From Tubulanus polymorphus (taxonomy: Eukaryota > Animalia > Nemertea), in NCBI RefSeq assembly GCF_964204645.1, contig NC_134030.1:3018778-3082777 (forward strand): a stretch of DNA of 64,000 nucleotides, written 5' to 3'. Position numbers and translations under genes: made by a program. The notes under the pieces were generated by a model that was not told where the DNA came from, did no database searches, and was given only the letters and a program-made list of their open reading frames with translations. This document shows, one piece after another, positions 21,513 to 50,400 of this stretch (positions are counted from its first letter, which is position 1; each line of letters opens with the position of its first letter).

Positions 21513-21810
<298 letters not shown>

Positions 21811-24481: not shown

Positions 24482-25065
24482 TTAAACATGAAAAGACTCT
24501 CATCTCTGCATCGACAGTAGATCTGTTTTTGACTTTTGGGTGTGTCGTGGATATCTGAATATCTATGAATCAAACGAGAATCATAACTCATACTGCTGCT
24601 GTTTATAAATATATACGTATTTTGTTTTCAAAGTATGCACCATATACGGATAGATCGATGCATGCTAGCACACCTATATAGCGCACCCTCGAATCGTATT
24701 CCAACGCGCGACCTTGAGGGGTTAAATGTAACTGAACCTACAGATATGAATATTGAACGGATTTACGTTTGTATCGTATATCGTCTGTCATCGTAAAATC
24801 AAGTGTATCAGTTAACTTCGAATCAATACATCGAAACATTAAAGCTTACTCGACTTACTCGAATCTTTACGACGCCCATTCCTCCTATAGACGTATGAAC
24901 AAATAATGCGTATATTGAGAACAGTTTGATGTTGTTTTGCGGTTTACACATTGTTGTCAGGGATCGATGTTGATTGAAGAGAGTCCTGAAGCAATCATCT
25001 CTCCGCGGGCGCTTCTTCGTCGTTCGGTAACCATGGATATAAGTCGACGCATTTCGTAGCCAAGC

Positions 25066-25365
25066 TCTCATTTCTCTCTCTCTCCCCCTCCTTCTCTCCC
25101 TCTTCTCCCCTCTTTCTCACTCTTCTCTCTCCTCTCCCTCTCTCCCTCTCTTCTCCCCTCATTCCATCTCTCTCCTCATCTCTCATTTCTCTCTCTCTCC
25201 CCCTCCTTCTCTCCCTCATCTCCCCTCTTTCTCACTCTTCTCTCTCCTCTCCCTCTCTCCCTCTCTTCTTCCCTCATTCCATCTCTCTCCTCTCATCGTT
25301 CTTCCCTCTCGTTCCCCTAATCTCCCTATCACTGGATCCTATCTCTCGCCCTCTCGCTTTTCTTC
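25066..25365. repeat. CT-rich polypyrimidine tract with an internal direct duplication
   Basis: Almost pure C/T; tcccctctttctcactcttctctctcctctccctctctccctctcttct occurs at ~25106 and ~25221. Confidence 0.9.
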
Positions 25366-31721: not shown

Positions 31722-33729
31722 TATATCCAGTAATCGTTTAAACTGTTTTAGAATTTCGGGTTCAATCTAGGCTTCATCGTCCATGTTTTTTTTTCTTGAT
31801 AGAAACCTCTGCTGAGGAGAATGCATAATGATTTATCTATATAGGTGTCCATTTTCGATATCATAATTATCATACGTATAATATTTCCAGCGTCGGCAGC
31901 GACATTCCTCGTGAATTCAATATTTCTAACTTTCCACTTTAGAAGAGCATATTCAAGATCGAAGATCTCACAAACTGTAATTCTTTCAATCAACAAAACT
32001 ATGTAATATCTTATCAGTTCTCTTTCATATAGACATCTGGACCCGGTTCCACAGTCAAGGCTTAGACTCAAGACCAGTCTTGAAGATTCAAGATCACTTA
32101 AGTCTCGAATGTGGAACCTGCCCCTGGACCTGGTTCGGCAGTTTTGGGTTAAGTTTGAAATTTGAATTATTGTAAAGATTCATTTCCAATTATTGCACCC
32201 TAGAGTCAAATTCAAACTCACAACTGTTGAACTAGGTCAAAACTGTAGAATTGGGTCCAGTACGTAGGGTGTTAGCTTAGAAAAGGACACAAGATTGGAG
32301 TGAGGTGAATGAGAGAGGTTGGTTAAAGGAGAGAGGGAGAGAGAGAATTTATTCTATTACGATATGATGAACGTTTTTTAGATATTTCAATCTTCTTGTC
32401 ACCAACAGATATTATCAGTGTTTTATGCCTGCAAAATACAAAAGCACTTTTAAAAAGCTTGATAATTGATCTCAGTATTTAAGAAACATCATTTACTAAA
32501 AACATCATTTCTGCTTCTCGCTGTAGATAATAAGAAGTTTTTACAATTTCTCGAATTTGTCCATTGAATAAAGCATAATGTTAATTACCAGGCGTCGCAT
32601 GAAGTCAGACGTCAAACTTTTTAACAACACGACTTCTCCATACAATCTGCATGTTAACAAAATGTCAAATTGCGATGTAAAAAGAACAATATTGTAACCA
32701 TTTTTGGTCAAAGTATGATATCGACTACCAGCGCGCCACCTGGCGTGAAGATACTTTCAAGACTCAATATTCACTTACAACATAGTTAGACGTCATTCAT
32801 ATGAATAGCTATAATGTATCGCGAGGTAGGAGGTAATATCATAAACCGAATTCGTGGAACACATAGCAAACACTTCCTCTTCTGGTCAATGATGCAAACT
32901 TGACAAAATCCTGTGCAGTTGAACTCGCTCGATTCGTTATCTATCTCCCTTTTTGAGTTTCAATATCTATCTATATTCAAACCAATTCATTAAAGTGTGA
33001 GTGGTCATTTGGATAAGTTTTGAACCCAATAATCGTCCCAACTACACGCTATGACTTAAGGCGAGTTTAACTGAACTTAAAAGACGTCATGTCGCATTCG
33101 ATATGTTCAAATACAGTAAATAGATTATTATTGTTGGTATGAATCACAGACACAGAGATATTCAACAATCTATTGTTCTTCATTAGATATACAATTAATA
33201 GTTGTTTTATTATATATTATTCAAAAAATAAACCATTTGTTGAAGAGTTCTATAGTTTACGTGTTATGTAGATTGAATGCCATGGATTGAACGTCCCAAA
33301 TTCAGTCCAAAAATGTGTTTTGAAATGAATATTTCATACTAACAGAATGGTGTGATATTTTACAAATTCTGTTTACTTTCCCTTATTTGACAGTTGACGT
33401 TAACGTGGATTCATATTTCCATTTCGTAGTCCAACTGCTCATCTGTTCAAATTAAACTGCAAAAACAGTCGTTTTGAGTTACTCGTTTACAGCCCCTCAT
33501 CCAACTATTTTCTAACGTCAATATAGCTATTCTTATTTTATGATCAATTCAGCGATTGACATGGACATTGAAATGCAAGCAGTCTATACCCGGTACTCAA
33601 TCTAGACAATATGGACGTATATACTTACTATATGAACGTATTGGAGTGAAAAAAAATCGATCACTTCATCAAATCGATCACTTCAAGTCTATGTTTGGTC
33701 AGCTAACACTTGCGCTAGGCCTGTGGGTC

Positions 33730-33794
33730 CATATAACCAAGAGTCAGAACTGATGATCATGACTCGAATCAGTTGTTCTACCAAACACGTAAGT
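33730..33794 (+). promoter_or_regulatory. Putative TATA-like/Inr core promoter and non-coding exon 1 of peptide locus 1
   Basis: catataa at 33730, tcagtt at 33769, donor ccaaacac|gtaagt at 33788/33789; conserved at loci 2 and 3. Confidence 0.6.
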
Positions 33795-33832
33795 AAAAGA
33801 CATGTAGATATCACAACTTGGCGAGGCCATAA

Positions 33833-34709
33833 TGTTCGCTGTAGCGGGTCGGGTGAGACGAGTCACGACTGTTCGCTGTAGCGGGTCAGGTGAGACGAGT
33901 CCCGACTGCTCGCTGTAGCGGGTCGGGTGAGACGAGTCAGGACTGCTCGCTGTAGCGGGTCAGGTGAGACGAGTCCCGACTGCTCGCTGTAGCGGGTCGG
34001 GTGAGACGAGTCAGGACTGCTCGCTGTAGCGGGTCGGGTGAGACGAGTCAGGACTGCTCGCTGTAGCGGGTCGGGTGAGACGAGTCAGGACTGCTCGCTG
34101 TAGCGGGTCGTGTGAGACGAGTCAGGACTGCTCGCTGTAGCGGGTCGGGTGAGACGAGTCAGGACTGCTCGCTGTAGCGGGTCGGGTGAGACGAGTCAGG
34201 ACTGCTCGCTGTAGCGGGTCGGGTGAGACGAGTCAGGACTGCTCGCTGTAGCGGGTCAGTTGAGACGAGTCAGGACTGCTCGCTGTAGCGGGTCAGGTGA
34301 GACGAGTCAGGACTGCTCGCTGTAACGGGTCGGGTGAGACGAGTCAGGACTGCTCGCTGTCGGGTGAAACGAGTCTGGACTGCTCGCTGTAGCGGGTCAT
34401 GTGAGACGAGTCTGGACTGCTCGCTGTAGCGGGTCAAGTGAGACGAGTCAGGACTGCTCGCTGTAGCGGGTAAGGTGAGACGAGTCAGGACTGCTCGCTG
34501 TAGCGGAACGGGTGAAACGAGTCTGGACTGCTCGCTGTAGCGGGTCATGTGAGACGAGTCTGGACTGCTCGTTGTAGCGGGTCATGTGAGACGAGTCAGG
34601 ACTGCTCGCTGTAGCGGGTCAGTTGAGACGAGTCAGGGCTGCTCGCTGTAGCGGAACGGGTGAAACGAGTCTGGACTGCTCGCTGTAGCGGGTCAGGTGA
34701 GACGAGTCC
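33833..34709 (+). repeat. 37-bp minisatellite array 1 (~24 units) in intron 1 of peptide locus 1
   Basis: Unit gggtgagacgagtcaggactgctcgctgtagcgggtc, head-to-tail with no spacers. Confidence 0.97.
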
Positions 34710-34847
34710 TGTGATTGTATTTTGGGTTAAGCGTATAAAATGCCTGGATCTATTTGGGCCACTTGATGGTTCTTAATTGAATTTGTAATTTATTTCAATT
34801 TTCGTGTCATCAATATAGGAGCGATTTCTACAAGTATCTGCTGTACA

Positions 34848-35579
34848 ATGATCAGTAAGTATTCTAGATCCAGGTTCCAAGTTGTCACTTACCGTTAACA
34901 TTCGGGTCGAAACAGATCATTTTTATTGTTTCAACTCCAGTCTAAACAGTTAAATTTTAACTTAAGCTATGTCCTGGTAACATGTATATTATCTGAACGA
35001 TCGTTTTTTTTTGTGGTTGGATTTTTTTTTTTGTCGAGTTCGTCGTATCGTGGCTGGCTATTGCTTAGTGATCTGGATTCAGATCCACAGTTCTAAATTG
35101 AATATGACCTTTAAAGTTATATGATTGGAAATGAGCTGATTTAACTCGCTGAGTTAACAGTAACTCACAACTGTGGACCCGGGCCCCGATGGTATTTGCG
35201 AGAGTGCGCGGGGTCTTAATCGTATGGTTCTGATAGATTTAGAGGTGGTCATCTTGATGTTCCTCAGTTGCAGAACCTTGTTAAAAAGATGGACCCCGAC
35301 CAACCGGGAAACCGGTCAGTGAGGAGACCCTAATACTACTACCGCGGTGGTTGGCTCGAACATATGTAAAAGTCTACCTAAACTTATCAAAATTGTTTTA
35401 TTTCTACAAAATAGCGCACTGTCACTGTTCATCAATCGACTCTATACATTTCAGGAAACGTTTTGCGTCTTGCACTTTTTATTGCGTCTGTAATGGCCAT
35501 GGCGGTCGCTGAAAATAATGAAACACCTTTAGAGAGAATTGCTCGATGTGATCATAATGGAGCATGCAATTGTGGATAG
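34848..35579 (+). CDS. Secreted Cys-peptide precursor 1A, 43 aa: MIRNVLRLALFIASVMAMAVA-ENNETPLERIAR-CDHNGACNCG
   Basis: Coding micro-exon ATG ATC A|gtaagt (34848-34854) joined to ttcag|35455-35579; AATAAA at 35746; structure conserved in the paralogues. Confidence 0.85.
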
Positions 35580-36189
35580 ATGGAAGAATGAACCAATCTT
35601 CAATTACTGTCATTAAAAAAAAAACATCTCAGTGTTAGTTATTTCTAGAAGAAACGGTTGTATCAATGAATCCTCTGTAGAGATGTGATTCATAGAAACA
35701 GCCGTATTTTCATAAGAATGTACTGAATGTGATGACTGTAATTAGAATAAAGATGAATGAATAACATGATAAAAAATTGACGTATTGCGTTTATTTGTAC
35801 GAATGACACTCGTAGTGACATTTGCTACGATTCTATGGCGTGTTATGTTAAAATTGAATGTTTTAAGTTTATTTCACTCATCGTTCGTTTTTAAAGTTAT
35901 CAAATCATAGAAATACCAACATCCGTTGCCATTGTCACGCAGCTGAGAGCAGAGGCAGCAACTTATGATTATTGGACTTTCTTTTTTCGAGTTTTTCTTT
36001 GTCATTCGACCTAGAAATCATTCGAGCAATTATCGGCTGAATTTTTGGGAACCGGCGACTGAATGCACGGTGGGCCTTATTGATATATATTGACCTAGAG
36101 GTTGTCACCGGGTAGTTAAACGTTGATGTTGTTTTAGGGTATAATAAATGCCACCTATGATAGAAGTACATATATTACGTTTATTGCAG

Positions 36190-36335
36190 GTCACGTATTA
36201 GGCCATATTGTGCTTTATGGAGTTTTTGCGTTTCTCGCCATGGCTGTAGCCGAAGATGAAAATGCGAATCTGGATGTTACTTTAGAGAGAATTGCTCGAC
36301 GAACTTGTGATTCACGTGGACAATGTGGCAGTTAA
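36190..36335 (+). CDS. Terminal exon of precursor 1B (50 aa if spliced to 34848-34854): MISHVLGHIVLYGVFAFLAMAVA-EDENANLDVTLERIARR-TCDSRGQCGS
   Basis: ttgcag acceptor in the same phase as 1A, open frame to TAA at 36333-36335, own 3'UTR copy and AATAAA at 36500; no separate ATG micro-exon seen between 35760 and 36189. Confidence 0.75.
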
Positions 36336-36869
36336 TCGACGACACAATGAACTAATCTTCAATTACTGTCATTAAACAAACATCTTGTTAGTTATTTCTA
36401 GAAGAAACGGTTGAATCTATGAAATCCTCTGTAGAGATGTGATTCATAGAAACAGCCGTATTTTCATAAGAATGCACTGAATGTGATGACTGTAATTAGA
36501 ATAAAGATTAATATATAAAAATACAATTCAAAGTTTTGTGTTTATTTCACTCTGCGGCCTCAAAGTTATCAATCATGGCATTAACAACATCCGTTGCTAT
36601 TGTTACACAATATTGAGAGCAGGCAGCAATCTGTAAATATTAGACTTTGTTTTTGCGACAGCCACGACACTAGAATATATCAGAATGGAATGGCCTCCTG
36701 GTATCTTCCTACACCACCACCTAGTGGGCTTAGTTCTATCATGGACTCTAAAACGAAAGAGCCCATGGTTCTATTCAACTCGGGTTCAAATATACAAACA
36801 CAAGACGTTGAGTTGTATGTTTAAATATTCATCTTTATTCTCATTACGGTCACTATGTCCACTTAGAAT

Positions 36870-37042
36870 TCTAAATCATTGTTTAAAATACGGCTGTTTT
36901 TGTATGAATCCATATATTACATCATCTCTACTGAGGATGTCATTAATACAACCGTTCCTTCTAGAAATAACTACAAGACGTTTATTAGATGACAGTACGT
37001 TCGTTCCATCTATCCACATTTGCAGTCTTTTCCATTTTTTCC
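36870..37042 (-). pseudogene. Truncated relic of a type-A terminal exon (...NGKDCKCG* plus diverged 3'UTR)
   Basis: Minus strand reads aatggaaaagactgcaaatgtggatagatggaa followed by recognisable family 3'UTR; the signal/pro region is missing. Confidence 0.65.
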
Positions 37043-38071
37043 TTTTATTTTATTTTAGAAAGAAAATTAGTATATCTAAATGTGCTTAGAAGGTAACTAG
37101 ATATGTGGGCTGAGTTCCTTTCAATGTAAAGATCCTTTGGTCCGATGTGAATTTTTCAGACAGCCCAAAAATAGTCTTGAATACATTTAAACATTTTACA
37201 TTTTGTGGTGTGTGATATTTCACAAAATTTTGACATCTGGCTATAAGTGGATCATATTTCGAATTTGCAGTACGACTGAACAAACTAACCCTACAATACG
37301 TCGTTTCACGCTTCTCCGTGCGTTAAATATTCACATCATCCATCAAAACTATTAAGCTTTCCTACTGCTAAAAGTTCATATGCATTTTCGCTATATACCG
37401 ACAATAACTAGAAGCATTCCGAATAGATCATTCCAGTGAATAAGGGAAGGCCTTTTGTGATCTTTCTCGACACAAGGAAAGAAAATTATCCTCAATTCAA
37501 CTTGCCTCCATCGAATGGAAAGAAAACTCATTTTGTAACGTAGTGGTTAAAACGCCTACTTTAGATTTCGTGTCTGTGACGTCGTAAGATTGTTGTTGGA
37601 GATTGTGCGTACAACAGAAGATAATCTATAGTCGTTTACTAATTTCAAAGATTTTTCACGTAACCATCGTGTTTGACCGTCAATATATAATATAAGGTGG
37701 CATCGTCGCGAGATAGAAGTACATTGGTGGCTATAGTAATCCCCTCAATAAGGAATCACTAACGGACAATAGACAATAGACTGTGTTGCGGGAGGGGGCT
37801 AGTGACGTGATTTGAAGTAAGAAAATTAAATGTCATTCCAGGTTTCGTTCGTACAAACAAACACACAATACATTGATTTATATGTTTTATCTATTCATCT
37901 TTATTCTAATTACAGTCATCACATTCAGTGCATTCTTATAAAAATACGGCTGTTTCTATGAATCACATCTCTACAGAGGATTTCATAGATACAACCGTTT
38001 CTTCTAGAAATAACTAACACTGAGATGTTTTTTAATGACAGTAATTGAAGATTAGTTCATTGTGTCGTCGA

Positions 38072-38957
38072 TTAACTGCCACATTGTCCATTTGAATCAC
38101 AAACTCGTCGAGCAATTCTTTCCAAAGAAATATCCAGATTTTCATTTTCATCTTCATCGGCTACAGCCATGGCGACTGATGCAAAAATACCACACAGCGC
38201 AAGTCCTAATATGTGTCCTGAAATACACATAATATATGTACAGTCGAAGCCCGTTATAATCACACTATTTTAGACCAATGGTAAACATTGGCAGCTTTAT
38301 AAAGAACGGTATTTTCCATGAATTAAGGTTAGATTGAGCGAATTTGTTCCCTGAAAAGAATATTTGCGTTTAGTGAGCAATGGCAACTATTTACGTTTGA
38401 TACTTGCAGTGACAATGATCAATATCAGTAAGGCCCAGTGCGCACTCAGTCACCGGTGCACAAAAACTCCACGACCGATTTGGCCACGTATGATGGCGTT
38501 GGCTGATATCAAACTTGTTGAATGATAGTAGGGAATTATATCAAGACAGCAGACTTTATACGAACCCCAACCTTTTCAAACATATTTTATTAATAAAAAC
38601 CAAAAATAGAGCCGAACTTCGTAAATTGTGTATTTTTATTGGTAAAATTATGAGATTTTTCACTTTTCCTTAAAAATCAGACTCAAATTGTCTTTGTATT
38701 AAGACCACGAGTTTGTCAAATAAGTTAAAGTAAAGTAAAGTAAAGAATATTTTTGTCGGCCCGACACTATCGAACAGCAAAGCAAATACATCGGTCATCG
38801 TAATGGCTGCTGGGTATCCGACAAATACCCGCGCGAGGAGCGTTAGCGCTCGAGGATTTAACCAAACGTGTCATAACCTATAGCAAGCGAATGATCGAGA
38901 AAAAAATCATTCAGACCTATACATGTTTGAATACAAACTAAAATACTTACTAATCAT
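38072..38957 (-). CDS. Secreted Cys-peptide precursor 2, 50 aa: MIRHILGLALCGIFASVAMAVA-DEDENENLDISLERIARR-VCDSNGQCGS
   Basis: Micro-exon ATG ATT A|gtaagt (38957-38951) joined to ttcag|38217-38072; AATAAA at 37905-37900; overlaps ORF-track 38072..38263. Confidence 0.87.
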
Positions 38958-39130
38958 TGTTCAGCAGATTATGAAGTTGAAATCAACCTACAAATATATA
39001 AAAACGACATGAATATTATCAAATTTGCAAACATCCGGGCACTTTTTCACAAAACAAAATATTCTGTGAACGTTATGAAGCTTAAATAGCTTCCTCAACG
39101 AGATAATGCAAAGCACCAGTTGAGCAGTAC

Positions 39131-39778
39131 TGACTCATGTCACCTGACCCGCTACAGCGAGCAGTCCTGACTCGTCTCACCTGACCCGCTACAGCGAGCA
39201 GTCCTGATTCGTCTCACCCGACCCGCTACAGCGAGCAGTCCTGACTCGTCTCAACTGACCCGCTACAGGGAGCAGTCCTGACTCGTCTCACCTGACCCGC
39301 TACAGCGAGCAGTCCTGACTCGTCTCACCCGACCCGCTACAGCGAGCAGTCCTGACTCGTCTCACCTGACCCGCTACAGCGAGCAGTCCTGACTCGTCTC
39401 ACCCGACCCGTTACAGCAAGCAGTCCTGACTCGTCTCACCTGACCCGCTACAGCGAGCAGTCCAGACACGTCTCACCTGACCCGCTACAGCGAGCAGTCC
39501 TGACTCGTCTCAACTGACCCGCTTCAGCGAGCAGTCCTGACTCGTCTCAACTGACCCGCTTCAGCGAGCAGTCCTGACTCGTCTCACCCGACCCGTTACA
39601 GCGAGCAGTCCTGACTCGTCTCACCTGACCCGCTACAGCGAGCAGTCCTGACTCGTCTCAACTGACCCGCTACAGCGAGCAGTCCTGACTCGTCTCACCC
39701 GACCCGCTACAGCGAGTAGTCCTGACTCGTCTCACCCGACCCGCTACAGCGAGCAGTCCTGACTTGCTATAGCGAACA
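39131..39778 (-). repeat. 37-bp minisatellite array 2 (~17 units, inverted) in intron 1 of peptide locus 2
   Basis: Reverse complement of the array 1 unit (gacccgctacagcgagcagtcctgactcgtctcacc). Confidence 0.97.
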
Positions 39779-39814
39779 TTAAGGCCTCGCGAAGTTGATA
39801 TCTACGTGTCATTT

Positions 39815-39890
39815 ACTTACGTGTTTGGTAGAACTAACTGATTCCAGAAGTGATGATGATGATGATCAGTTCTTGCTCTTGTTTATGTGA
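39815..39890 (-). promoter_or_regulatory. Putative core promoter and non-coding exon 1 of peptide locus 2
   Basis: Minus strand cataaacaagagcaagaactgatcatc...aatcagttagttctaccaaacac|gtaagt, homologous to 33730-33794. Confidence 0.6.
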
Positions 39891-41023
39891 TATCACGGGC
39901 CCAGTGACAGCGTTGCCTGAACAAACAATGTGTTAGTTGATTGTAGAAGAGATCAATATTTCGATGGGATCTCATCGCATATGTATATGATGATATGACG
40001 TGGCAAATTTTCAAACATGTAAAAACATTTTTTTCATGACGGTTAACTACGTGTGACTTTGATAACCAAAACATACGAAAATGTATTACTGGTGTTTTAT
40101 TCTTTCGATCTTTCAAAGTTCTATTGTGTCTTACATCAACCACCATATACCAGCTACCCAACCAGATGGTGAGAAATATTTCATTTCACTCATCTCTCTT
40201 TGCTCCAGAATGAGAGAAATGTAGAAGAAATTGAACGCGGGAACCTAGCGAACCTAGCGGCTCCTCTCTCGAATCCTCAATTGCCTCAGTAGCGTTGAAG
40301 GTCCAATTTACCTGGTATAGGGAAACTCGATTCAATAGCACCGCCCCACCGAATTTGGTTTAAGAATACGTACAAGAAAAATGAGCTTTAAGAAGGAGGA
40401 CATCTGCGAGTAGAAAATTAGCATAATTGTTATAAATTCTTTCTTGGTGTCGTGAAAATAACTGTAATTTTTTGAAATGGCAATTCGGGTCACATTGGAT
40501 TAGTTAATCTACGCATTATGAATGATTCGATTTTATCATAAATGTCAATCGCCGAATTGACAGGGAATGCTGAATAATCTAGCTAGATTTACGTTGGAAA
40601 TAGTGGGATGAGGGAGCTTCAAACGAGTAACTCGAAACGATTGTTTTAGTAGTTTAATTTGAACAGTCGTGCAGTTGGACTGCGGAATGGAAATATGAAT
40701 CCATTAAATCTATAAACATGAAGTAAATGAAAATATGCAGAATATCTAAAATATCACACTAATGTCCAACTGCTCAAATGAAACTGCAAAAACACTCGTT
40801 TGGAGCTCCCACACCCAACTATTTTCTAACGTCAATATAGCTATTTTCTACTTGTCAGCGATTTACATTCAAAATAAAATAGAAGCATTCAGCAATATTT
40901 CTAATATCCAAAACCCCCTGTATACTTGTATTACAGACATGTGCTTTTGCGAAGTGACTCACCCGATATTATTGGTTAGCATACGAAATCATTTACATGA
41001 CAGCTAAGTTTGTAAATCCCTTG

Positions 41024-42266
41024 CAGGCGCGGATTCAATGGGGAGCCCAGCCGGCCCGAGCCCCCCTTTTTCAAGCTTTATTTCTCGGGTGAAGGAAGCA
41101 TATGGAATGTTACTGAAATGATTGTGAGCATCATTAAATACAGCAGTAACAGTAACCGAGTAGTATATATATGGTTATTTTAAATACTGCCACCAAACGT
41201 ATATAATCTGAAAGACACATATCTCTCTTTTGAAAAATCCTCTGGAAAACGATGGAATTTGACAACAGTTGAGCGATGGTTTCAGTAAAAGTTATGACAG
41301 CCTGCTTAGTCATAGCCATGCCGCGGCCAGGATGAGTGTTAATAGGCCTAATTTTATGATGAGCGCTGAGCGGGAACGTGTCCGCCCTAGAAGTCGTGGG
41401 CGATGTAATAGATCAATGAATGGTTTGCGGCCAGGATGTGTATTGGCGTGAGCGCGAGCAGGCGGCAATCAAACCCTGGCAAGTGAGGATGGCTGCAAAT
41501 AGTCCCAAAACATTTTCATATTCTTAATTCACAAACAGCGGGAGTAATCAGAATCGCTACATAAGTCAATGTGAAAAGATCTCTGATCTTGCGCTTATAG
41601 GTAGCCTTGCTCGTGCAGAACTGGCGCGCTTTTGGTTGCGATTTCGATTTCTCGTCCGAGTCAAGCATGACCTAAAGCGCTAATGCTAAACTGCCGTGAT
41701 GACGAGAGATAGGCTACTTACACGAAAAGGCCCCGTTTAAGAATTTTCGGAAGGCATTACAGGGGCATCCTCCCCCGGCAGGGATTCGAACCTGATGGCA
41801 TCGAGATTGCCACGGCACGAAACCCTGCCATAATCGACCGTGTGCGCAGATACAGGCGCAGTTCAGATGATGTGATTTTTAGCCAATCAGAAATCCCGTT
41901 TTATTTTAGCCCGGGTTTTCCCATTTATAGTTCATCCTTGAAATTTTCCTCAACGATTATACAACGAGCAATCTGATTGGTGCCGCCAGTTTTCGTTCGG
42001 AAAGCTGCGCATGTACCTGCGCACCCGGTCTAGTGTGGCAGGGGTTCGTGCCGTGGCTGAGTGTAGTGATGCCATCAGGTTCGAGTCCCTGCAGAGGGAG
42101 GATGTTACAGGGTCTGCTAGCCACCCTATTCACCCCCTAGATCCGCCCCTTAAACCCCTAGGAGACTTCGCATCTACGGCGCTCGTCTCGCGTCGGCGCA
42201 GGTATAGTTTAGCATTTTCTTTCAACTCAGCCCCCCACCCTATCCAGAAATCCTAGATCCGCCCTT
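41024..42266. mobile_element. Composite non-autonomous insertion containing a nested palindromic element at 41765-42105
   Basis: Outer ends caggcgcggattca / ctagatccgcccttg. Inner inverted arms catcctccc..gcagggattcgaacctgatggcatc..gccacggcacgaaaccctgcca and gtgcgcagatacaggcgcag. Confidence 0.6.
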
Positions 42267-43033
42267 GCTTGGTTTCTTTGTCAGCCGATGGCAAGTCTCA
42301 AGCATGGTTGCTTGGCAAAAAACTGTTATGTCGCGTGCAAGACCTGTGTAGGGCCAGTTATCGGGGCTAGTAAACTGTCAAACACGGAATCATTTACAAA
42401 AAGTGGGAACCACTTCTTCCACCCTGATGAGAAATAGAATTCATTTTGCTACACGGCGCAAGTTAGAATGCGAGGTAATCGGCCCCGTGACAGTCTATAC
42501 GCTATAGGGACCTATATACTTTTGCAGTATAGACCTAGATACTTTAGTAAACTTTTTTTATTCTTCCTGATTTTTCCTTTCATAAACAATACAAAAATAA
42601 ACCGTTCCGAAAAATCACCGCACAAAAACGCAAAGAAATTCGACGCCAAAAGAGTTCGTTTTGCGGACGTATTTGCGTGAAAAAACGGTATATATGTATA
42701 ATAGAATTCTATGTGTTTCGGTCAAGTACACGCACTCAGAATCTTGAATGTTACTCACGCCCTGAATTACAAGACTTTTCAACTAAGACGTGTTCTTTTA
42801 GTAGATATCACTCGATCTCCGGTTCTTTCCACAATATTGTGAAGGCTGCACAAGATTTCACAGAATGTATATTAGTGAGACAGTGCATTTTTCTGTATCT
42901 CAAACACGTGATATTATAATTTCCATTTTGCAACGGTTCAAAAACCATCAAATTGATCATTTCAGTAAACAGAGCATCGATTGATCATAATGTATTGTTT
43001 GTTCAGCTAACACTTGCGCTGGGTCTGTGGGTC

Positions 43034-43100
43034 CATATAAACACGAGAGTGAGAACTGATGATCATGACTCGAATCAGTTGTTCTACCAAACACGTAAGT
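43034..43100 (+). promoter_or_regulatory. Putative TATA/Inr promoter and non-coding exon 1 of peptide locus 3
   Basis: catataaa at 43034, tcagtt at 43075, donor acac|gtaagt at 43094/43095; nearly identical to locus 1. Confidence 0.62.
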
Positions 43101-43144
43101 AAAAGACATGTAGATATAACAAAGACTTTACGACTTAGTGAAGC

Positions 43145-43877
43145 CAGGACTGCTCGCTGTAGCGGGTCAGTTGAGACGAGTCAGGACTGCTCGCTGTAGC
43201 GGGTCAGGTGAGACGAGTCAGGACTGCTCGCTGTAGCGGGTCAGGTGAGACGTGTCTGGACTGCTCGCTGTAGCGGGTCAGTTGAGACGATTAAGGACTG
43301 CTCGCTGTAGCGGGTCAGGTGAGACGAGTCAGGACTGCTCGCTGTAACGGGTCGGGTGAGACGAGTCAGGACTGCTCGCTGAAGCGGGTCAGTTGAGACG
43401 AGTCAGGACTGCTCGCTGAAGCGGGTCAGTTGAGACGAGTCAGGACTGCTCGCTGTAGCGGGTCAGGTGAGACCTGTCTGGACTGCTCGCTGTAGCGGGT
43501 CAGGTGAGACGAGTCAGGACTGCTTGCTGTAACGGGTCGGGTGAGACGAGTCAGGACTGCTCGCTGTAGCGGGTCAGGTGAGACGAGTCAGGACTGCTCG
43601 CTGTAGCGGGTCAGGCGAGACGAGTCAGGACTGCTCGCTGTAGCGGGTCGGGTGAGACGAGTCAGGACTGCTCGCTGTTGCGGGTCAGGTGAGACGAGTC
43701 AGGACTGCTCGCTGTAGCGGGTCGGGTGAGACGAGTCAGGACTGCTCGCTGTAGCGGGTCGGGTGAGACGAGTCAGGACTGCTCGCTGTAGCGGGTCGGG
43801 TGAGACGAGTCAGGACTGCTCGCTGTAGCCGGTTAGGTGAGACGAGTCAGGACTGCTCGCTATAGCGGGTCAGGTGA
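43145..43877 (+). repeat. 37-bp minisatellite array 3 (~20 units) in intron 1 of peptide locus 3
   Basis: Same unit as array 1. Confidence 0.97.
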
Positions 43878-44101
43878 TGAAGCTGTCTGTAATGTTCACA
43901 GCCAATGATCTATTGTTGAGACAAATAGTCATATAGTCGTAGTAAAACATGTCTTATTTATAAAAACGATCTTAATTTTGATTCAGTGAATAAAATGCCT
44001 GGATCTATGCGGGCCACTTGATGGTTCTTAATTGAATTTGTAATTTATTTCAATCCTCGTATTTTCCTGTAGGTGCGATTTTTACAAGTATCTGCTGTAC
44101 A

Positions 44102-44645
44102 ATGATCAGTAAGTATTCTAGATCCAGGTTCACGGTTGTGAGTTACAGTTAACTATGAGTCCAAATAGTTCATTTTCAAAGTTCAAAAATATCTGAATGA
44201 TCGGTCGTTCGACTTTTTTTGTCGAGTGAGATGTTTGCCGTAGTGACATCGTAGCTGAGTTAAACCCGCTTTTGGCTTGGAAATCTGATATTTGCGAGAG
44301 TGTTTGATATGTTGCTCCTCAGTTGGGGAATCCCGTTAAAAAGATGTGGCCCCGACAAACCGGGAGCTCGGTCAGTGAGGAGACCCTAATACTACTGCCG
44401 CGGTGGTTGGCTCGAACATCGTAAAAGTCAACTTGGTATAAACTTATGAAAGTTGTTTTATTTTTACAAAATAGTGATCTGTCACTGTTCATCAATCGAC
44501 TCTATACATTTCAGGAAACGTTTTGCGTCTTGCACTTTTTATTGCGTCTGTAATGGCCATGGCGGTCGCTGAAAATAGTGAAAAACCGTTGGAGAGAATT
44601 GCTCGACTGGATTGTAATCATAATGGAGCATGCGATTGTGGATAG
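44102..44645 (+). CDS. Secreted Cys-peptide precursor 3, 45 aa: MIRNVLRLALFIASVMAMAVA-ENSEKPLERIAR-LDCNHNGACDCG
   Basis: Micro-exon ATG ATC A|gtaagt (44102-44108) joined to ttcag|44515-44645; AATAAA at 44816. Confidence 0.87.
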
Positions 44646-47080
44646 ATGGAACAATGAACTAATCTTCAATTATTGTCATCAAATAAACATCTGTAGTTAT
44701 TTCTAGAAGAAACGGTTGTATCAATGAGATCCTCTGTAGAGATGATGTAAGAAGTGGATTCATAGAAACAGCCGTATTTTCATAAGAATGTACTGAATGT
44801 GATGACTGTAATCAGAATAAAGATTAATGAATGATATAATTAAGAATAGACATATTGCGTTTATTTGTACGAATGACACTCGTAGTGACATTTGCTCGGA
44901 TTCTATTGCATGCGTTTCGCTGCGAAGAATAAACTTCAAGCGATTGGCTTTTCAAGAAAGCGCACGAGGAACACGAGTCAATGACATAGTTTGTAAATCA
45001 CACGATCCTTCCACAAAACACACTGCTATTTTCAGAATTATTTTTTTCGTCTTAGAATAGGGATTGTGCATTTTGTCTAATTTGTTTTGATGTGGTATCC
45101 TCAACAAACCCTGCACACCTGCCGGGAACGAAAAGGAGGTTCAGGATTCTTTTAACCATTGTACTTCATGTAGTTTCGTAGGTTCACTTATTCTTCCTAA
45201 ACTCCTCAGAATTCATATATTCGACGGATATTCGAGTTCAAAACCACGAATCGAAAAAGTAAAAATCAAACTCAACATATTTTGCATATTATCCGTATTT
45301 ATTACAATGTCTTCGAAATAAGGTTTATAATTTCAAGCTACTTTGGGATTGACCGAAACATTCAGACACCGATCATTGAAAAGCTTATATTCGCTATTCC
45401 GTGTATTAATCAGTAAGTACACTTCAGGTGAGGGTACAACAAAAAGCGATGATAGTCTCGAGAAAACGATCAACACCAAGCCAAATAAAGCGATTCCACA
45501 ATCAATCCAGTTTTTTTGATTTGTTTCAGCTCCTGTTCACACTATGTTCATCACTACCGATCGAATTCCTTCCAGAAAAGCATTATTATTTATCAATAAT
45601 CATATGGCTGTACGTAAACTGTTTCGGTATGAATTTCACAAATGGTATTTTTCTCAACGGTTTCAACTGGTGTCGACTGCATTTTCGATAGAAATTCACA
45701 CAGGACGCAATAAAAGCTGAAAATATATTCGAAAAGCGTGATTTTAAAGTTAGGAAATTACTGGCAAAAGGTCCCGAGGATATAAACGGATTGATCGCCC
45801 TCCCGCAGCGAAATCAATATCAATCAGAAACTAAATCAACGTTTATTGGAAAATTCCAAAGGGTAAGATTTATTACATTTTCATTCGCAGGTTGAAATAA
45901 TTCCTGCTGTATCCCAGGTGTTGTCCGTATGCAATCATGTCTGAAAACTATTTCATTTTTCCTGCAGAAAAATGCATTTAATATCAGGTTGGTCTTAGTT
46001 GTACACGATGGAGTGATGTTCAGAGGTTAGAGGAAGGCCCGGCGCCCATGTACATGCACTGGATGATATTTTTAGGCTTACATTTTGCGGGCCAATTCAA
46101 ATCAATGAAGGAAAAGCGAAACTATTCGTATAGTTAGTTCTATTTCTTTCTTCGAGAGGACCTACACTTATTTCATAAATAAACAGTGGACAAATTGTAC
46201 AAGATATTCGCCATTCCAACAGGTACATGTACGTACCGGGTATATACTTTGACTAATAATTTGCAGGGGAAGAAAGCTTTTTGACCGACCGTTGGTGCGC
46301 GGCCGTAATTTTCTGATGAATAATGTTCTCTTTGATGAGCGTCGTAGCCACTGACTGCGCCTAAATTGCGTATAGCTTTTATCTCTAACTTATACCTCAA
46401 CTTAACAGCGAAATTGACCCAAAAATATGTTTTTACATATACACAATCAGTGCGGCAGGGACATACAGTCATACGTGACAGTGAAATGGACATTCCATCT
46501 ATATATCAGACTACATTTGCGAACCACCAACTGATTTTTTGGTTTGTCTATTAATCAACGGAGGACTTTTTCCTGAGACAAAATCGAAAATGTATATAGT
46601 AAGAATAAGCACTGATTCTATAATGATTTTCCTATACCGAATAATAACATTCGTTTTAGAGCTTTGATTCGACAATCAATAAACATGAAAAGAGATAATT
46701 ATTTTACAACAAAATGTACTTTTCATTGTCTATGCGTGTATCAGTTTTTCCGGTGTGTTTCCATACAACTGGCGCGTCTACAAAATCGACCAGTTACAGA
46801 AAATCAGATTTTGTTTGTTTCTGGAGCGATGTCTCACGGGCGGCTGGCAACTATATCGCGGTCGAAATGTGAAACCCCATCGGGAAAAACTGCTTCCATT
46901 GAATTCGTTTACCCCTACCTAACCTTATCTGTGTATATATATATATATATATATGTACAGTACGGCAGATATCTTTTAAGATACCTAATCATTTTTAAAC
47001 CCACGTAGTTCATATGTTACTTGGAATCGTCGTGATGTTCGCTGACCATGACCGTTTTAACTTACTTTAGACACATATCT

Positions 47081-47437
47081 TTAATCTTTGATTTCACCGC
47101 TGTCGCTGTTTTCTGTCTGCGAACCGAACGGTTCCTGCGAAAACCCGAATCGCGAGCACGTGTTCATTGCGTGAACGCAGTACATTCTGGCCTGGTTTGC
47201 CACGTCTATCGAGTCGTCCATCGCGCCGCCGTCGACCCTTTTGCCGAAAAGTAAATTCGAATTGCGCTTCCCGAAGACGAGTCCCGACCCTCTTCGACTG
47301 AATTCGTTGGCGCGTTTACGACCGAACAGCAGCGAAGAGCGCTTCTCACCGAATCGAATCTTCTTTCCGCTGGAGAAATCCAGCACTAGCAACATGGCGA
47401 AAATGAAAATAACGCAAACTTTATAAGTTGACTGCAT
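47081..47437 (-). CDS. SIFamide/FFamide-type neuropeptide precursor (118 aa) yielding SSLLFa, GSGLVFa and NSNLLFa
   Basis: Acceptor ttcag at 47444-47442, then ATG at 47437. Signal peptide, three xxLxF-G peptides flanked by basic sites (KR, RKR, RR), and C-terminal CVHAMNTC matching the C-x6-C motif of SIFamide precursors. Confidence 0.88.
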   Translation of the reverse strand: MQSTYKVCVIFIFAMLLVLDFSSGKKIRFGEKRSSLLFGRKRANEFSRRGSGLVFGKRNSNLLFGKRVDGGAMDDSIDVANQARMYCVHAMNTCSRFGFSQEPFGSQTENSDSGEIKD

Positions 47438-50400
47438 GACTCTGAAAAACATAAACAGAACGACATGTTGTGAATTTCAATGCAATTCGTCTTTACGTAA
47501 AAGTTACAATAATCTAAAGAGATTTGTCAGGACCCAGTTCCACCACTTCTGTGTTCAGATTTGAATCATTAACCCATTGAAAATCTAATCTTAACTCGGA
47601 GTTAACCCACGTGGAACCGGGTCCTGACATTTTATGCATAATGAAAGACTTTTTACATCGATTTTACTTAGAAATATCGTTTAGAAAATTACTATCGTTC
47701 AAAATGATCGTTTTAAATAAGTTACTCCGAAGAAGGTTTCCATCTCTTAAACGAAAGAGAGAATCTTCTATTGCGCTCTAAGAAATTAGTTGCATTCTTA
47801 AATCCCATAGATTTGTAAATGCATGGATTAGTATCAGTATCGTTATTACTATTGTCTAGAATTTATACAGCGCCTTATTCCTAAAAAGGCGCTTAACAGA
47901 ACATAAAAAAGAAAGACATACAATCCAAATGAAATAAAACGATGAAAATAATACAGTATGAAAATAGTGAAATAGCAATTAATATAGCGATATAATTGAG
48001 GGATTTTTTTTTCTCCGCAAAAGAATACGTTACTTATTGACCCGATGTTTGTATTATCACAGCGCATATATTGAGAGAGATACATGCGCCGTAAAAATAT
48101 GGACGTTTGAACAACTAGTAATTAGCGTAATGAAGAACGCCCATCCATCTATCCAATACAACTATCAAGTGGTTTTATATAGCAACATTGAACGTGCAAT
48201 TATCCGTGTCTTACTGACGGCAATTGCTCGTATGAGATCCGTGTCTAGTGAATCTAAGTGCAAATAATTGCTGTTTCAATGTACGTACGTCGCTCTCTTA
48301 CAAACATCACCTGCGAAAAAAATACTCGAGCTTCAGTAATTGATTTATCTTATTTTCATCGCCTTTTTTTTACATCGCGTTCACAATTCTTATGGAGTTG
48401 GCCAACCGTTCGCAACGATGCCTAATAGGTCTTTGCCTGTTTGAACAAAAACATTTGGCGCGTGCTTTATTTAGCACCGGTTGACGTCGAATTTGGACTC
48501 GAGTCTGATCGTCTCCGTGTGATCGCGGTTTACAATCCCAGCAGCCATGTTCATTTCCTATTTTGGCAACCAACCAGTTAACAGAACGAGCGAGTTAAAG
48601 TTTCATTAGTTGCGGTTTGCAATGAAATACTGGTGAAAGTCTCCTGGTGATCGAATTATGTCAATGAGACATCGAATTGGCGTAAATAGGCGTTGAAATA
48701 CAAATTAGAAAACGCTGCCATGGTTTTGTTGTCGTGATTATTATTAGCACAAATAAAATGTGCGTGACACCTATAAACAGTGACGTAGCGTATAAAAGAT
48801 GGACGTAGGCAGACTAGGGACCCGTTGTGTAGTTCTATGAAATGAATTCCCCGGTGTCCATCGTCTCCGAGTTTACAAGATCGTGTATCCTTATTTATCA
48901 ACATTGAGCGTGAATTATGATACGAGACGATATGAATATGATAATTGTCTTGAATTTCTTATACTGTTTAAGAGCTGATGTGTACGGCGTATAGCAATTG
49001 TCGCGCTCTTTTTGAGAAAACATTTTATTCGGTATCAAATGCAAGGCAAGAGAAAAAGAAACGTTAAGAGTCGAGTGATCTGTGACTCGGATTCGGTTTG
49101 CCATTATATAACAGCGTATAAGGAAATTAGATACGATTCCCACAAACGGCTCGACCTTTTTTATTCAAAATCTTATCACGTTTTTAGCGATTCAACAGTT
49201 AGGTGTATACTAGTTCGGGTCGTGTTTCCTTACCGGAGTTTGTAAAAAGAAGACCAAAAGGTAGGTATATTTTGAGTAAAATGATGCGGTTTTACCGGCA
49301 CTCACGTTAGCTCGAACCAATCGTCGGATGGATATGATACTCTCCGCGTAGCTCTGTTTTTCGCTATTTCTTTCGGTGTCGGTTTTACGTGGGTTTGATG
49401 AAAATCTTTTGTCGAAAAATGACACGGCTCTACGGACTCGACCTGTAATTTCTGGTGTAGCGGGATCATTTAATAACCAAACCGGTTGGTTAGATTTTGA
49501 TTTGGATTCGATTGACCATGGATGAAACTGGGCCATGTTTATTTAAAGCCGCATTCTGAAACTGGTAAATAACACACTAATAACATTTGCATTTTTAATC
49601 ATCTTTTTTTCAAATGAAATTACTTCAGTTATTTGGGTGTATCGATGCTGATTTTGACGCCATCAAAACCGTTTACTGCGTGAGTCGATGTGCACTACGT
49701 CATCAATATCGGCGCTCAAAATATCAATTGTGAATTTTGGCATCAAATTTATAATCAGATAAATTTTTCTCTTATTTTCCATTTAATGAATTTTCATGTC
49801 TTTTTGATACCGGATTTTGATGGCAATTACGATTAGCGAGTGAGTGCGTGTGTCATCAATATTGAAACTAGACTGGTTGCCGGTCAATTCAATTCAATTG
49901 TCGGATTTAGACAAATCAAATATAATTTTCCGATCCGTGATATTATATCATTTATATCATTTCATTGATTGCCGACAGCATCAAAACAATATTTTCAAGG
50001 CCTCAATAAACTTTCTTCAAGTTATAGTATTCTTATTCAATGAAGTGATTTTCTGTTGTATCTGACCGATGTTGATTGTTCCACGCTGGTTGTTCCCTCG
50101 CAGATTGTTTATACAGACACCTTTCAAATTATTTTTGATCATCGATCGTTGCTCGTATAGATAATCGTCGTTGATTACTGATTACCCGCGTGCGCGCCGG
50201 CACTTATCCGTACTTACCGTAAGCTCTTACCCTACGCGATGAAGATGAAGCCCATCCGAAATTAGTTACAGCCAGGTGTAAACAAAACGTTCGTATATCC
50301 TCTTTTATCTACGCGTAAAAAATACGAGATGAATTTCACGTAACGTCGAAATAAAATATCTTGCGTCGAGTCGATTTTTCAATTCATAGACGCGTTGAAT

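Follow-up and report, generated by a model that had tools for sequence, protein, structure and literature searches.

A 37-bp intronic minisatellite in three small peptide genes of Tubulanus polymorphus and its probable inheritance by gene duplication

Introduction

The stretch of DNA described here is a 64-kb window of the genome of the palaeonemertean Tubulanus polymorphus, and "the window" refers to this whole stretch throughout. It contains a cluster of genes for very small putative secreted peptide precursors, and three of these genes (loci 1, 2, and 3) are each associated with a G-rich tandem array of a 37-bp unit near their 5′ end. The arrays resemble a rather ordinary repeat more than a switch that shuffles genes. 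The account that we favor, and consider probable, is that of a passenger minisatellite that was copied with the gene, was probably kept alike by gene conversion, and probably has no programmed role. A sequence-only reading of the same DNA had proposed, as its bold option, that recombination between the arrays reshuffles promoters and peptide exons, and had kept a passenger minisatellite duplicated with the gene as its fallback. The fallback is supported by rare unit variants that the arrays have in common and in order, and by an exon 1, a donor, and a micro-exon that are homologous in all three loci. The bold option is not supported, and its premise that the arrays can recombine appears to gain indirect support from the alignments between them.

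The sequencing data consist of k-mer contigs from four runs (X1–X4) of one study. X1 is DNA, and X2 and X3 represent a second sample whose uneven depth makes DNA and RNA indistinguishable, and these two runs were not used for copy number. X4 is not labelled as RNA, yet it contains a spliced contig of the RNA type. Some parts of the stretch have no cover in X2–X4 and were left aside.

The three 37-bp arrays

Tandem Repeats Finder with a period of 37 calls three arrays with lengths of 643–873 bp. Array 1 (33836–34708, plus strand) comprises 23.8 units with 91% matches and lies in intron 1 of locus 1. Array 2 (39122–39764, minus strand) comprises 17.4 copies of the reverse-complement unit with 94% matches, and array 3 (43145–43877, plus strand) comprises 19.8 units with 93% matches. 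A search with the unit, allowing up to three mismatches, returns 56 matches in the window (20 on the plus, 17 on the minus, and again 19 on the plus strand), and all 56 fall inside the three arrays, with none expected from 100 shuffles. Taken together, the arrays amount to 61 units. Like typical minisatellites, which consist of head-to-tail units of ~10–100 bp in tens of copies, they repeat a 37-bp unit 17.4–23.8 times. In addition, the unit-variant maps display interspersed variants, with interior blocks that are common to the arrays and ends that differ.

The G-rich strand is the sense strand in all three arrays (the minus strand in the case of array 2), and the G-variant unit comprises 16 G and 8 C, exactly as had been read from the letters. 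The repeat calls and the unit search also agree with the earlier description of arrays 1/2 and 2/3 as inverted pairs and of arrays 1/3 as a direct pair. The GC content of the arrays is 0.61–0.62 vs 0.38 for the rest of the window, and their sense-strand GC skew is +0.29 to +0.30 vs −0.016. Each array starts 46–50 nt past the exon 1 donor, with 46 nt in locus 1. Because the arrays share descent, as described below, the fact that the G-rich strand is always sense represents one evolutionary event and not three.

All three arrays had been placed between a non-coding exon and a micro-exon carrying the ATG. For locus 1, this placement is established by a 358-nt X4 contig, which consists of 190 letters of exon 1 (last base 33788), then the micro-exon at 34819–34854, and then the peptide exon. 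The joint from 34854 to 35455 in this contig has GT..AG borders and connects the micro-exon to the peptide exon of locus 1. Since the contig joins exon 1 straight to the micro-exon, array 1 is located in intron 1 and is spliced out, flanked by the donor at 33789 and the acceptor at 34818. In loci 2 and 3, the same placement is suggested by the conserved donor and micro-exon. Before each array there is a conserved segment that ends in ACCAAACAC and is followed by GTAAGT, and after each array there is a 36–37-nt segment that ends in ACAATGAT(C/T)A and is again followed by GTAAGT.

Probable common origin of the arrays

The alignments show the three loci to be paralogous from exon 1 to the 3′ untranslated region (UTR). 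Loci 1 and 3 are collinear over ~2.2 kb across this interval (33654–35842 vs 42950–44912), with identities of 100% in the micro-exon and 94.1% in the peptide exon. Locus 2 has exon 1, the array, the micro-exon, and the peptide exon in common with loci 1 and 3, and its introns are much more diverged. The identity of exon 1 is 95.7% between loci 1 and 3, 82.9% between loci 2 and 3, and 81.2% between loci 1 and 2. The intron portion after the array follows the same order, with 84.0%, 79.3%, and 74.1%, respectively, before gaps are counted; with gaps counted, the value for loci 2 and 3 is 59.3%. A fourth peptide exon in the cluster, referred to as cassette B, is 91.7% identical to the peptide exon of locus 2.

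The unit-variant maps extend this relationship to the arrays themselves. Units 3–12 of array 2 match units 4–14 of array 3, which has one extra unit, and units 10–14 of array 1 match units 1–5 of array 2 at 184 of 185 positions. Because rare unit variants recur in the same order from array to array, the arrays point to a single ancestral minisatellite that was copied with the gene. The array ends differ, as is usual for minisatellites: array 1 contains nine similar units in a row, one unit truncated to 30 nt, and a higher-order repeat of three units, and the terminal units are not the same among the arrays.

Most likely, intron 1 of the ancestral peptide gene already contained a 37-bp minisatellite, and the array would have been copied along with the gene as the latter duplicated. 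The array ends would have been reshaped later by expansion and contraction, through replication slippage or unequal exchange, which would give rise to the differing copy numbers. The G-richness of the sense strand and the donor-like GGTGAG would then be properties of the founding unit that were inherited three times. We infer a single origin of the array and an absence of function.

A comparable case is that of the primate SPANX-N genes, which carry a 39-bp minisatellite at the 3′ end of exon 2 that may be coding (PMC1831492). Both systems have a unit of 37–39 bp that is present in most members of a small family, is inherited by duplication, and varies in copy number among paralogues. Unlike in SPANX-N, the arrays of T. 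polymorphus are in a 5′-UTR intron, form inverted pairs, and have an ordered block in common that suggests exchange between them. The literature listings, which did not include a search dedicated to that question, yielded no work on arrays of this kind in nemertean genes.

Probable sequence exchange between arrays

Within the region common to arrays 2 and 3, units 3–11 of array 2 are identical to units 4–12 of array 3 at 330 of 333 positions. When the unit order of array 3 is shuffled, the mean is 321 of 333, and 330 is reached in one of 2000 trials. Since the shuffled order already averages 321, the signal resides in the order of the rare variants and not in the raw identity. The block is also more alike than its flanks, with 330/333 vs 82.9% in exon 1 of the same two loci. 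A block as old as the split of locus 2 from loci 1 and 3 would be expected to carry tens of substitutions, and three are seen. Moreover, the arrays are several hundred base pairs long, similar, and close together (array-to-array alignments of 550–840 bp at 89–94%, spacing of 3.4–9.3 kb). The simplest explanation of the block would be that arrays 2 and 3, which are inverted, underwent gene conversion with a tract of ~330–370 bp that did not extend beyond the array. The same picture would arise if the array sequence were under strong constraint, which is an alternative cause of this likeness.

Several points weigh against a passenger minisatellite homogenized in this manner. The array was kept in all three paralogues even though exon 1 of locus 2 has diverged by ~17–19%, and the near-identical array blocks could reflect purifying selection, which would imply a function. 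The enrichment of GGTGAG on the sense strand only and the promoter-proximal, GC-skewed position are features that functional elements can have. The evidence for conversion comes from one assembly, and a mis-assembled or mis-polished array would mimic it. A single origin, in turn, provides no independent replicates in either direction.

Motifs and structure of the unit

The two mini-hairpins that had been described in each unit are present as palindromes: every unit has two of 4 bp, each with a 2-nt loop. As structures they were rejected, because folds of four units are no better than those of shuffled sequences, with a z score of −1.0 for RNA and of +1.7 (sense) and +0.9 (antisense) for DNA. 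The arrays contain no canonical G-quadruplex (G4) motif, and no Rfam family matches them at E values up to 0.1. The hexamer GGTGAG occurs 40 times in the 61 units, always on the sense strand and never on the antisense strand, and six times on both strands of the other 61.7 kb of the window. CAGGTG is found in 19 units.

The ratio of observed to expected CpG is 0.97–1.13 in the arrays vs 1.26 in the window outside them. A reading of the arrays as CpG islands was considered and rejected, because the window-wide ratio is already 1.26. The latter value marks the surroundings as a stretch without CpG depletion.

A separate observation concerns exon 1 of locus 1, where the segment GAGTCAGAACTG at 33733–33744 matches 11 of the 12 letters of GAGTCAGGACTG in the unit; the corresponding figures are 10 of 12 for locus 3 and 9 of 12 for locus 2. 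This likeness could be due to chance, or it could hint at the source of the unit.

A possible cis-acting role

The array may instead be a cis-acting intron element that is conserved for its function, which is possible, although we do not consider it likely. Such an element could work through R-loops, through the E-box-like CAGGTG, or through binding of U1 small nuclear ribonucleoprotein at the ~40 GGTGAG copies. In favor of such an element are the skewed sense strand, with the array beginning 46–50 nt past the donor of exon 1, the CAGGTG of 19 units, and the restriction of GGTGAG to the sense strand with its rarity in the rest of the window. Within (C/G)AG^GTGAGA or CGG^GTGAGA (the caret marks the splice junction), GGTGAG fits the donor consensus to about the same degree as CAC^GTAAGT and TCA^GTAAGT, which are genuine donors. 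Blocks that are 99–100% identical between paralogues with exon 1 identities of 81–83%, and the retention of the array in all three loci, are likewise what conservation would produce. On the other hand, the arrays have one origin, so their orientation and position carry no independent weight, and both the copy number (17 to 24 units) and the structure of the ends vary freely among the loci. GGTGAG is missing from approximately one third of the units, and CAGGTG from more than half of them. The absence of a canonical G4 motif, a CpG ratio that does not exceed that of the window, and the existence of cassette B without an array of its own speak against such an element as well.

The closest parallel for the donor-like motif is intron 7 of human F7, which contains a 37-bp variable number tandem repeat (VNTR) with tandem, silent pseudo-5′ splice sites, the first unit of which spans the exon–intron boundary (PMC1557585). 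The F7 repeat has in common with the present arrays that an intronic 37-bp minisatellite carries a donor-like motif on the sense strand of its units, downstream of a genuine donor, and that the genuine donor is used, here in one RNA contig. The difference is that the F7 pseudo-sites copy the real donor, whereas array 1 extends from 33835, 46 nt after the locus 1 donor at 33789, and its unit has GTGAGA while the donor has GTAAGT.

Possible promoter and peptide reshuffling

The arrays may also be live recombination partners, that is, substrates of nonallelic homologous recombination (NAHR) in the germline. Occasional crossover would then produce segregating inversions between arrays 1/2 and 2/3 and deletions or duplications between arrays 1/3 in the population, and would hand the promoter and leader exon of one gene to the peptide exons of another without any program. 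We regard this as improbable. The logic by which splicing would be preserved is sound, as all arrays are placed in the same 5′-UTR intron, and a breakpoint anywhere in an array leaves a hybrid 5′-UTR intron and intact coding exons. Nothing shows that reshuffling takes place.

In favor of such recombination, the arrays measure 0.65–0.88 kb, align with one another at 90–94% in most registers, and are 3.4–9.3 kb apart. The nine-unit block common to arrays 2 and 3 argues for past exchange, and conversion and crossover share intermediates. The genes themselves tell a different story: exon 1, micro-exon, and peptide exon all pair locus 1 with locus 3, and locus 2 pairs with cassette B. Because exon 1 and the gene bodies group alike, a promoter swap by way of arrays 1/2 or 2/3 has not been fixed since the duplication that gave rise to loci 1 and 3. 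The spliced data contain no reshuffled arrangement, the sole spliced contig being in reference order, and this negative comes from short contigs that are blind to breakpoints inside the arrays. Such contigs break inside the arrays, where a junction would look like plain array sequence.

One candidate inversion was tried and rejected. It is a joint between opposite strands at 34657/39154 in X4 (depth 6.1, side 38), which belongs to an 87-nt array contig whose halves fit array 1 on the plus strand and array 2 on the minus strand. It is ordinary array sequence and uninformative. Another joint, from 34701 to 34898 in X2 (side 28), was set aside as short and situated at the edge of the array.

Two contigs depart from the reference close to the arrays. 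An X2/X3 contig covers 33692–33806, continues ~17 nt past the donor, and then runs for at least 180 nt into sequence that is absent from the window (loose-end search, 0 matches). A short X1 contig matches only 43082–43116 and has foreign sequence on both sides. The two contigs suggest that there is an additional copy, or else an allele in which an insertion immediately precedes the array. The former, with its exon 1 of the locus 1 type, lends NAHR some weight in that a structural difference would exist beside the array or in a further copy, but this difference lies ~28 nt before the array and thus outside it.

Inverted repeats such as those of F8 intron 22 and the arms of sex-chromosome palindromes reportedly undergo both gene conversion and inversion. 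The arrays resemble them in being inverted repeats a few kilobases apart, one of them intronic, in apparently undergoing non-reciprocal exchange, and in that a crossover would invert the segment between them. The known examples are said to be duplications of unique sequence of one to thousands of kilobases with more than 99% identity, whereas the arrays are short minisatellites in which no inversion was observed.

If the arrays do act in this way, they would provide a built-in means of rewiring the expression of a young family of secreted peptides, with the coding sequence and splicing untouched.

Dispersed repeat or switch region as improbable readings

It is highly improbable that a dispersed repeat or transposable element containing the 37-mer happened to land in these introns. 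Internal tandem repeats are common in some transposable elements, and the evidence on this question comes from the window, from read depth, and from contig collections. Within that scope, all 56 copies in the window belong to the three arrays, and their homologous positions in paralogues fit inheritance and not three insertions. The summed word depth over the unit in X1 is 2099–2805 vs 40–45 in the single-copy flanks, which corresponds to ~50–67 units genome-wide against the 61 in the window; the figure is rough, as summed depth is not a copy number. The only loose end listed for the array flanks in X1 is the known flank of array 2. The unit has no exact match in the metagenome contigs and none in the viral contigs, which is weak evidence in that nemertean DNA is hardly to be expected in these collections. 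On these grounds, a widely dispersed repeat is unlikely.

The comparison with immunoglobulin switch regions, in which the non-coding exon would serve as an I-exon and programmed somatic recombination would select the expressed peptide as in class switching, deserves next to no credence. Switch regions are 1–12 kb long, have one orientation, are rich in AGCT/WRCY hotspots, and undergo somatic deletion by a vertebrate enzyme, and to our knowledge the class-switch enzyme is restricted to vertebrates. The layout is alike in that the cluster has several sets of a non-coding exon, G-rich tandem repeats on the non-template strand of the following intron (skew of +0.29 to +0.30, with the splicing of locus 1), and coding exons. 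The analogy breaks down over orientation, length, and hotspots: array 2 runs opposite to arrays 1 and 3, so that exchange in two of the three pairs would invert rather than delete; the arrays are below 0.9 kb (0.65–0.88 kb, or 643–873 bp by the repeat calls); and AGCT is absent from the 2.27 kb of array sequence at 33835–34715, 39115–39765, and 43140–43880 (881, 651, and 741 bases). Moreover, cassette B has no array, and each gene of this nemertean has its own promoter region and exon 1, so that no switch is needed; X4 includes contigs from locus 1 as well as from locus 2.

Gene models and peptide precursors

Locus 1: The non-coding exon 1 (33600–33788, plus strand) is at least 190 nt long in the RNA contig, ends in ACCAAACAC, and is followed by the donor GT at 33789–33790. 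Its homology to loci 2 and 3 begins near 33652–33692. The micro-exon (34819–34854, plus strand) has 36 nt in the X4 contig and carries the ATG at 34848–34850. The peptide exon, or cassette A, is coding up to the stop over 35455–35579 (plus strand), as given by the X4 joint, by a contig over 35455–35586, and by translation, and its product ends in LERIAR-CDHNGACNCG.

Locus 2: The model of this locus, like that of locus 3, is predicted by homology to locus 1. The conserved part of exon 1 aligns at 39821–39961 (minus strand), with the donor following 39821 on that strand. The putative micro-exon at 38951–38987 (minus strand) has 37 nt, ends in ACAATGATTA, and is followed by GTAAGT, as judged from alignment. 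The coding part of the peptide exon (38072–38217, minus strand) translates into a product ending in LERIARR-VCDSNGQCGS, and an X4 contig covers 38012–38195 at a depth of 210.7.

Locus 3: The conserved part of exon 1 aligns at 42950–43094 (plus strand) and is followed by the donor GT at 43095–43096. The putative micro-exon at 44073–44108 (plus strand) does not differ from that of locus 1 in the 45 nt that align. The coding part of the peptide exon (44515–44645, plus strand) is collinear with locus 1, and its translation ends in LERIAR-LDCNHNGACDCG.

Cassette B: The fourth peptide exon (36190–36335, plus strand) lies downstream of cassette A, and its translation ends in LERIARR-TCDSRGQCGS. It lacks an exon 1, an array, and a micro-exon of its own, and no unit match is found nearby. 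The region around it (36166–36541, plus strand) is inverted relative to the exon of locus 2. Cassette B may serve locus 1 as an alternative last exon, or it may be a truncated copy.

The four exons form a cluster of very small putative secreted precursors at 34819–35579 (plus), 36190–36335 (plus), 38072–38987 (minus), and 44073–44645 (plus). Each peptide exon encodes a signal-like segment, an acidic spacer, the motif LERIAR(R), and a C-terminal peptide of 10–12 residues with two or three cysteines. A terminal G in two of the peptides could be a sign of amidation. The precursors may be neuropeptides, toxins, or something else. At least two of the genes are transcribed, and X4 contigs are present for both locus 1 and locus 2. 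A protein search with the locus 2 precursor found no relative in the protein collection, and a Pfam search assigned the precursors to no family, the only row being DUF5936 with an E value of 0.097, below the cut-off of that family. The peptides are not mentioned in the available portions of PMC8557429 and PMC9415933, whose supplements may list them. Overall, the peptide genes appear to be absent from public protein sets.

Surroundings of the cluster

An inverted fragment at 36796–37024 (minus strand) resembles the 3′ UTR only. Rearrangements of the cluster have taken place without involvement of the arrays. The segment at 33350–33584, upstream of locus 1, is 72–78% similar to 40520–40845, which lies 0.6–0.9 kb upstream of exon 1 of locus 2 and faces the same way with respect to the gene. 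The segment also has a second copy, partial and in the opposite orientation, at 40767–40845, and it is missing from locus 3.

The 5′ ends of loci 2 and 3 are divergent, and halfway between them a GC-rich island (GC 0.46–0.53) contains an inverted pair at 41766–41861 and 42005–42104. Its members are ~100 bp long, have 83% identity, and include GGTTCGA, which is similar to the T arm of tRNA. No tRNA was detected at 41766–42104 by ARAGORN or Rfam, and the pair may consist of degenerate short interspersed elements derived from a tRNA.

A further single-exon precursor is encoded at 47081–47440 (minus strand). It contains the repeated sequences SSLLFG-RKR, GSGLVFG-KR, and NSNLLFG-KR and would give amidated peptides of the SxLxF-amide type. 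It is 100% identical to an uncharacterized T. polymorphus protein (LOC141907183) and matches no Pfam family. Other repeats in the window are a 76-bp tandem repeat (4.7 copies) at 1550–1905, an (AT)n tract of 294 bp at 21515–21808, and a CT-rich 115-bp duplication at 25065–25318, all of which are unrelated to the 37-mer.

Significance

If the passenger account is correct, the cluster offers a clean example of a minisatellite that was inherited by gene duplication and homogenized between inverted copies. It also provides a caution that three arrays in the same position and orientation are one event. The arrays would matter more if they mediate inversions that swap promoters among the peptide cassettes. 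They would likewise matter more if the array is conserved in other ribbon worms, in which case it may be an intronic element that helps to express small secreted peptides.

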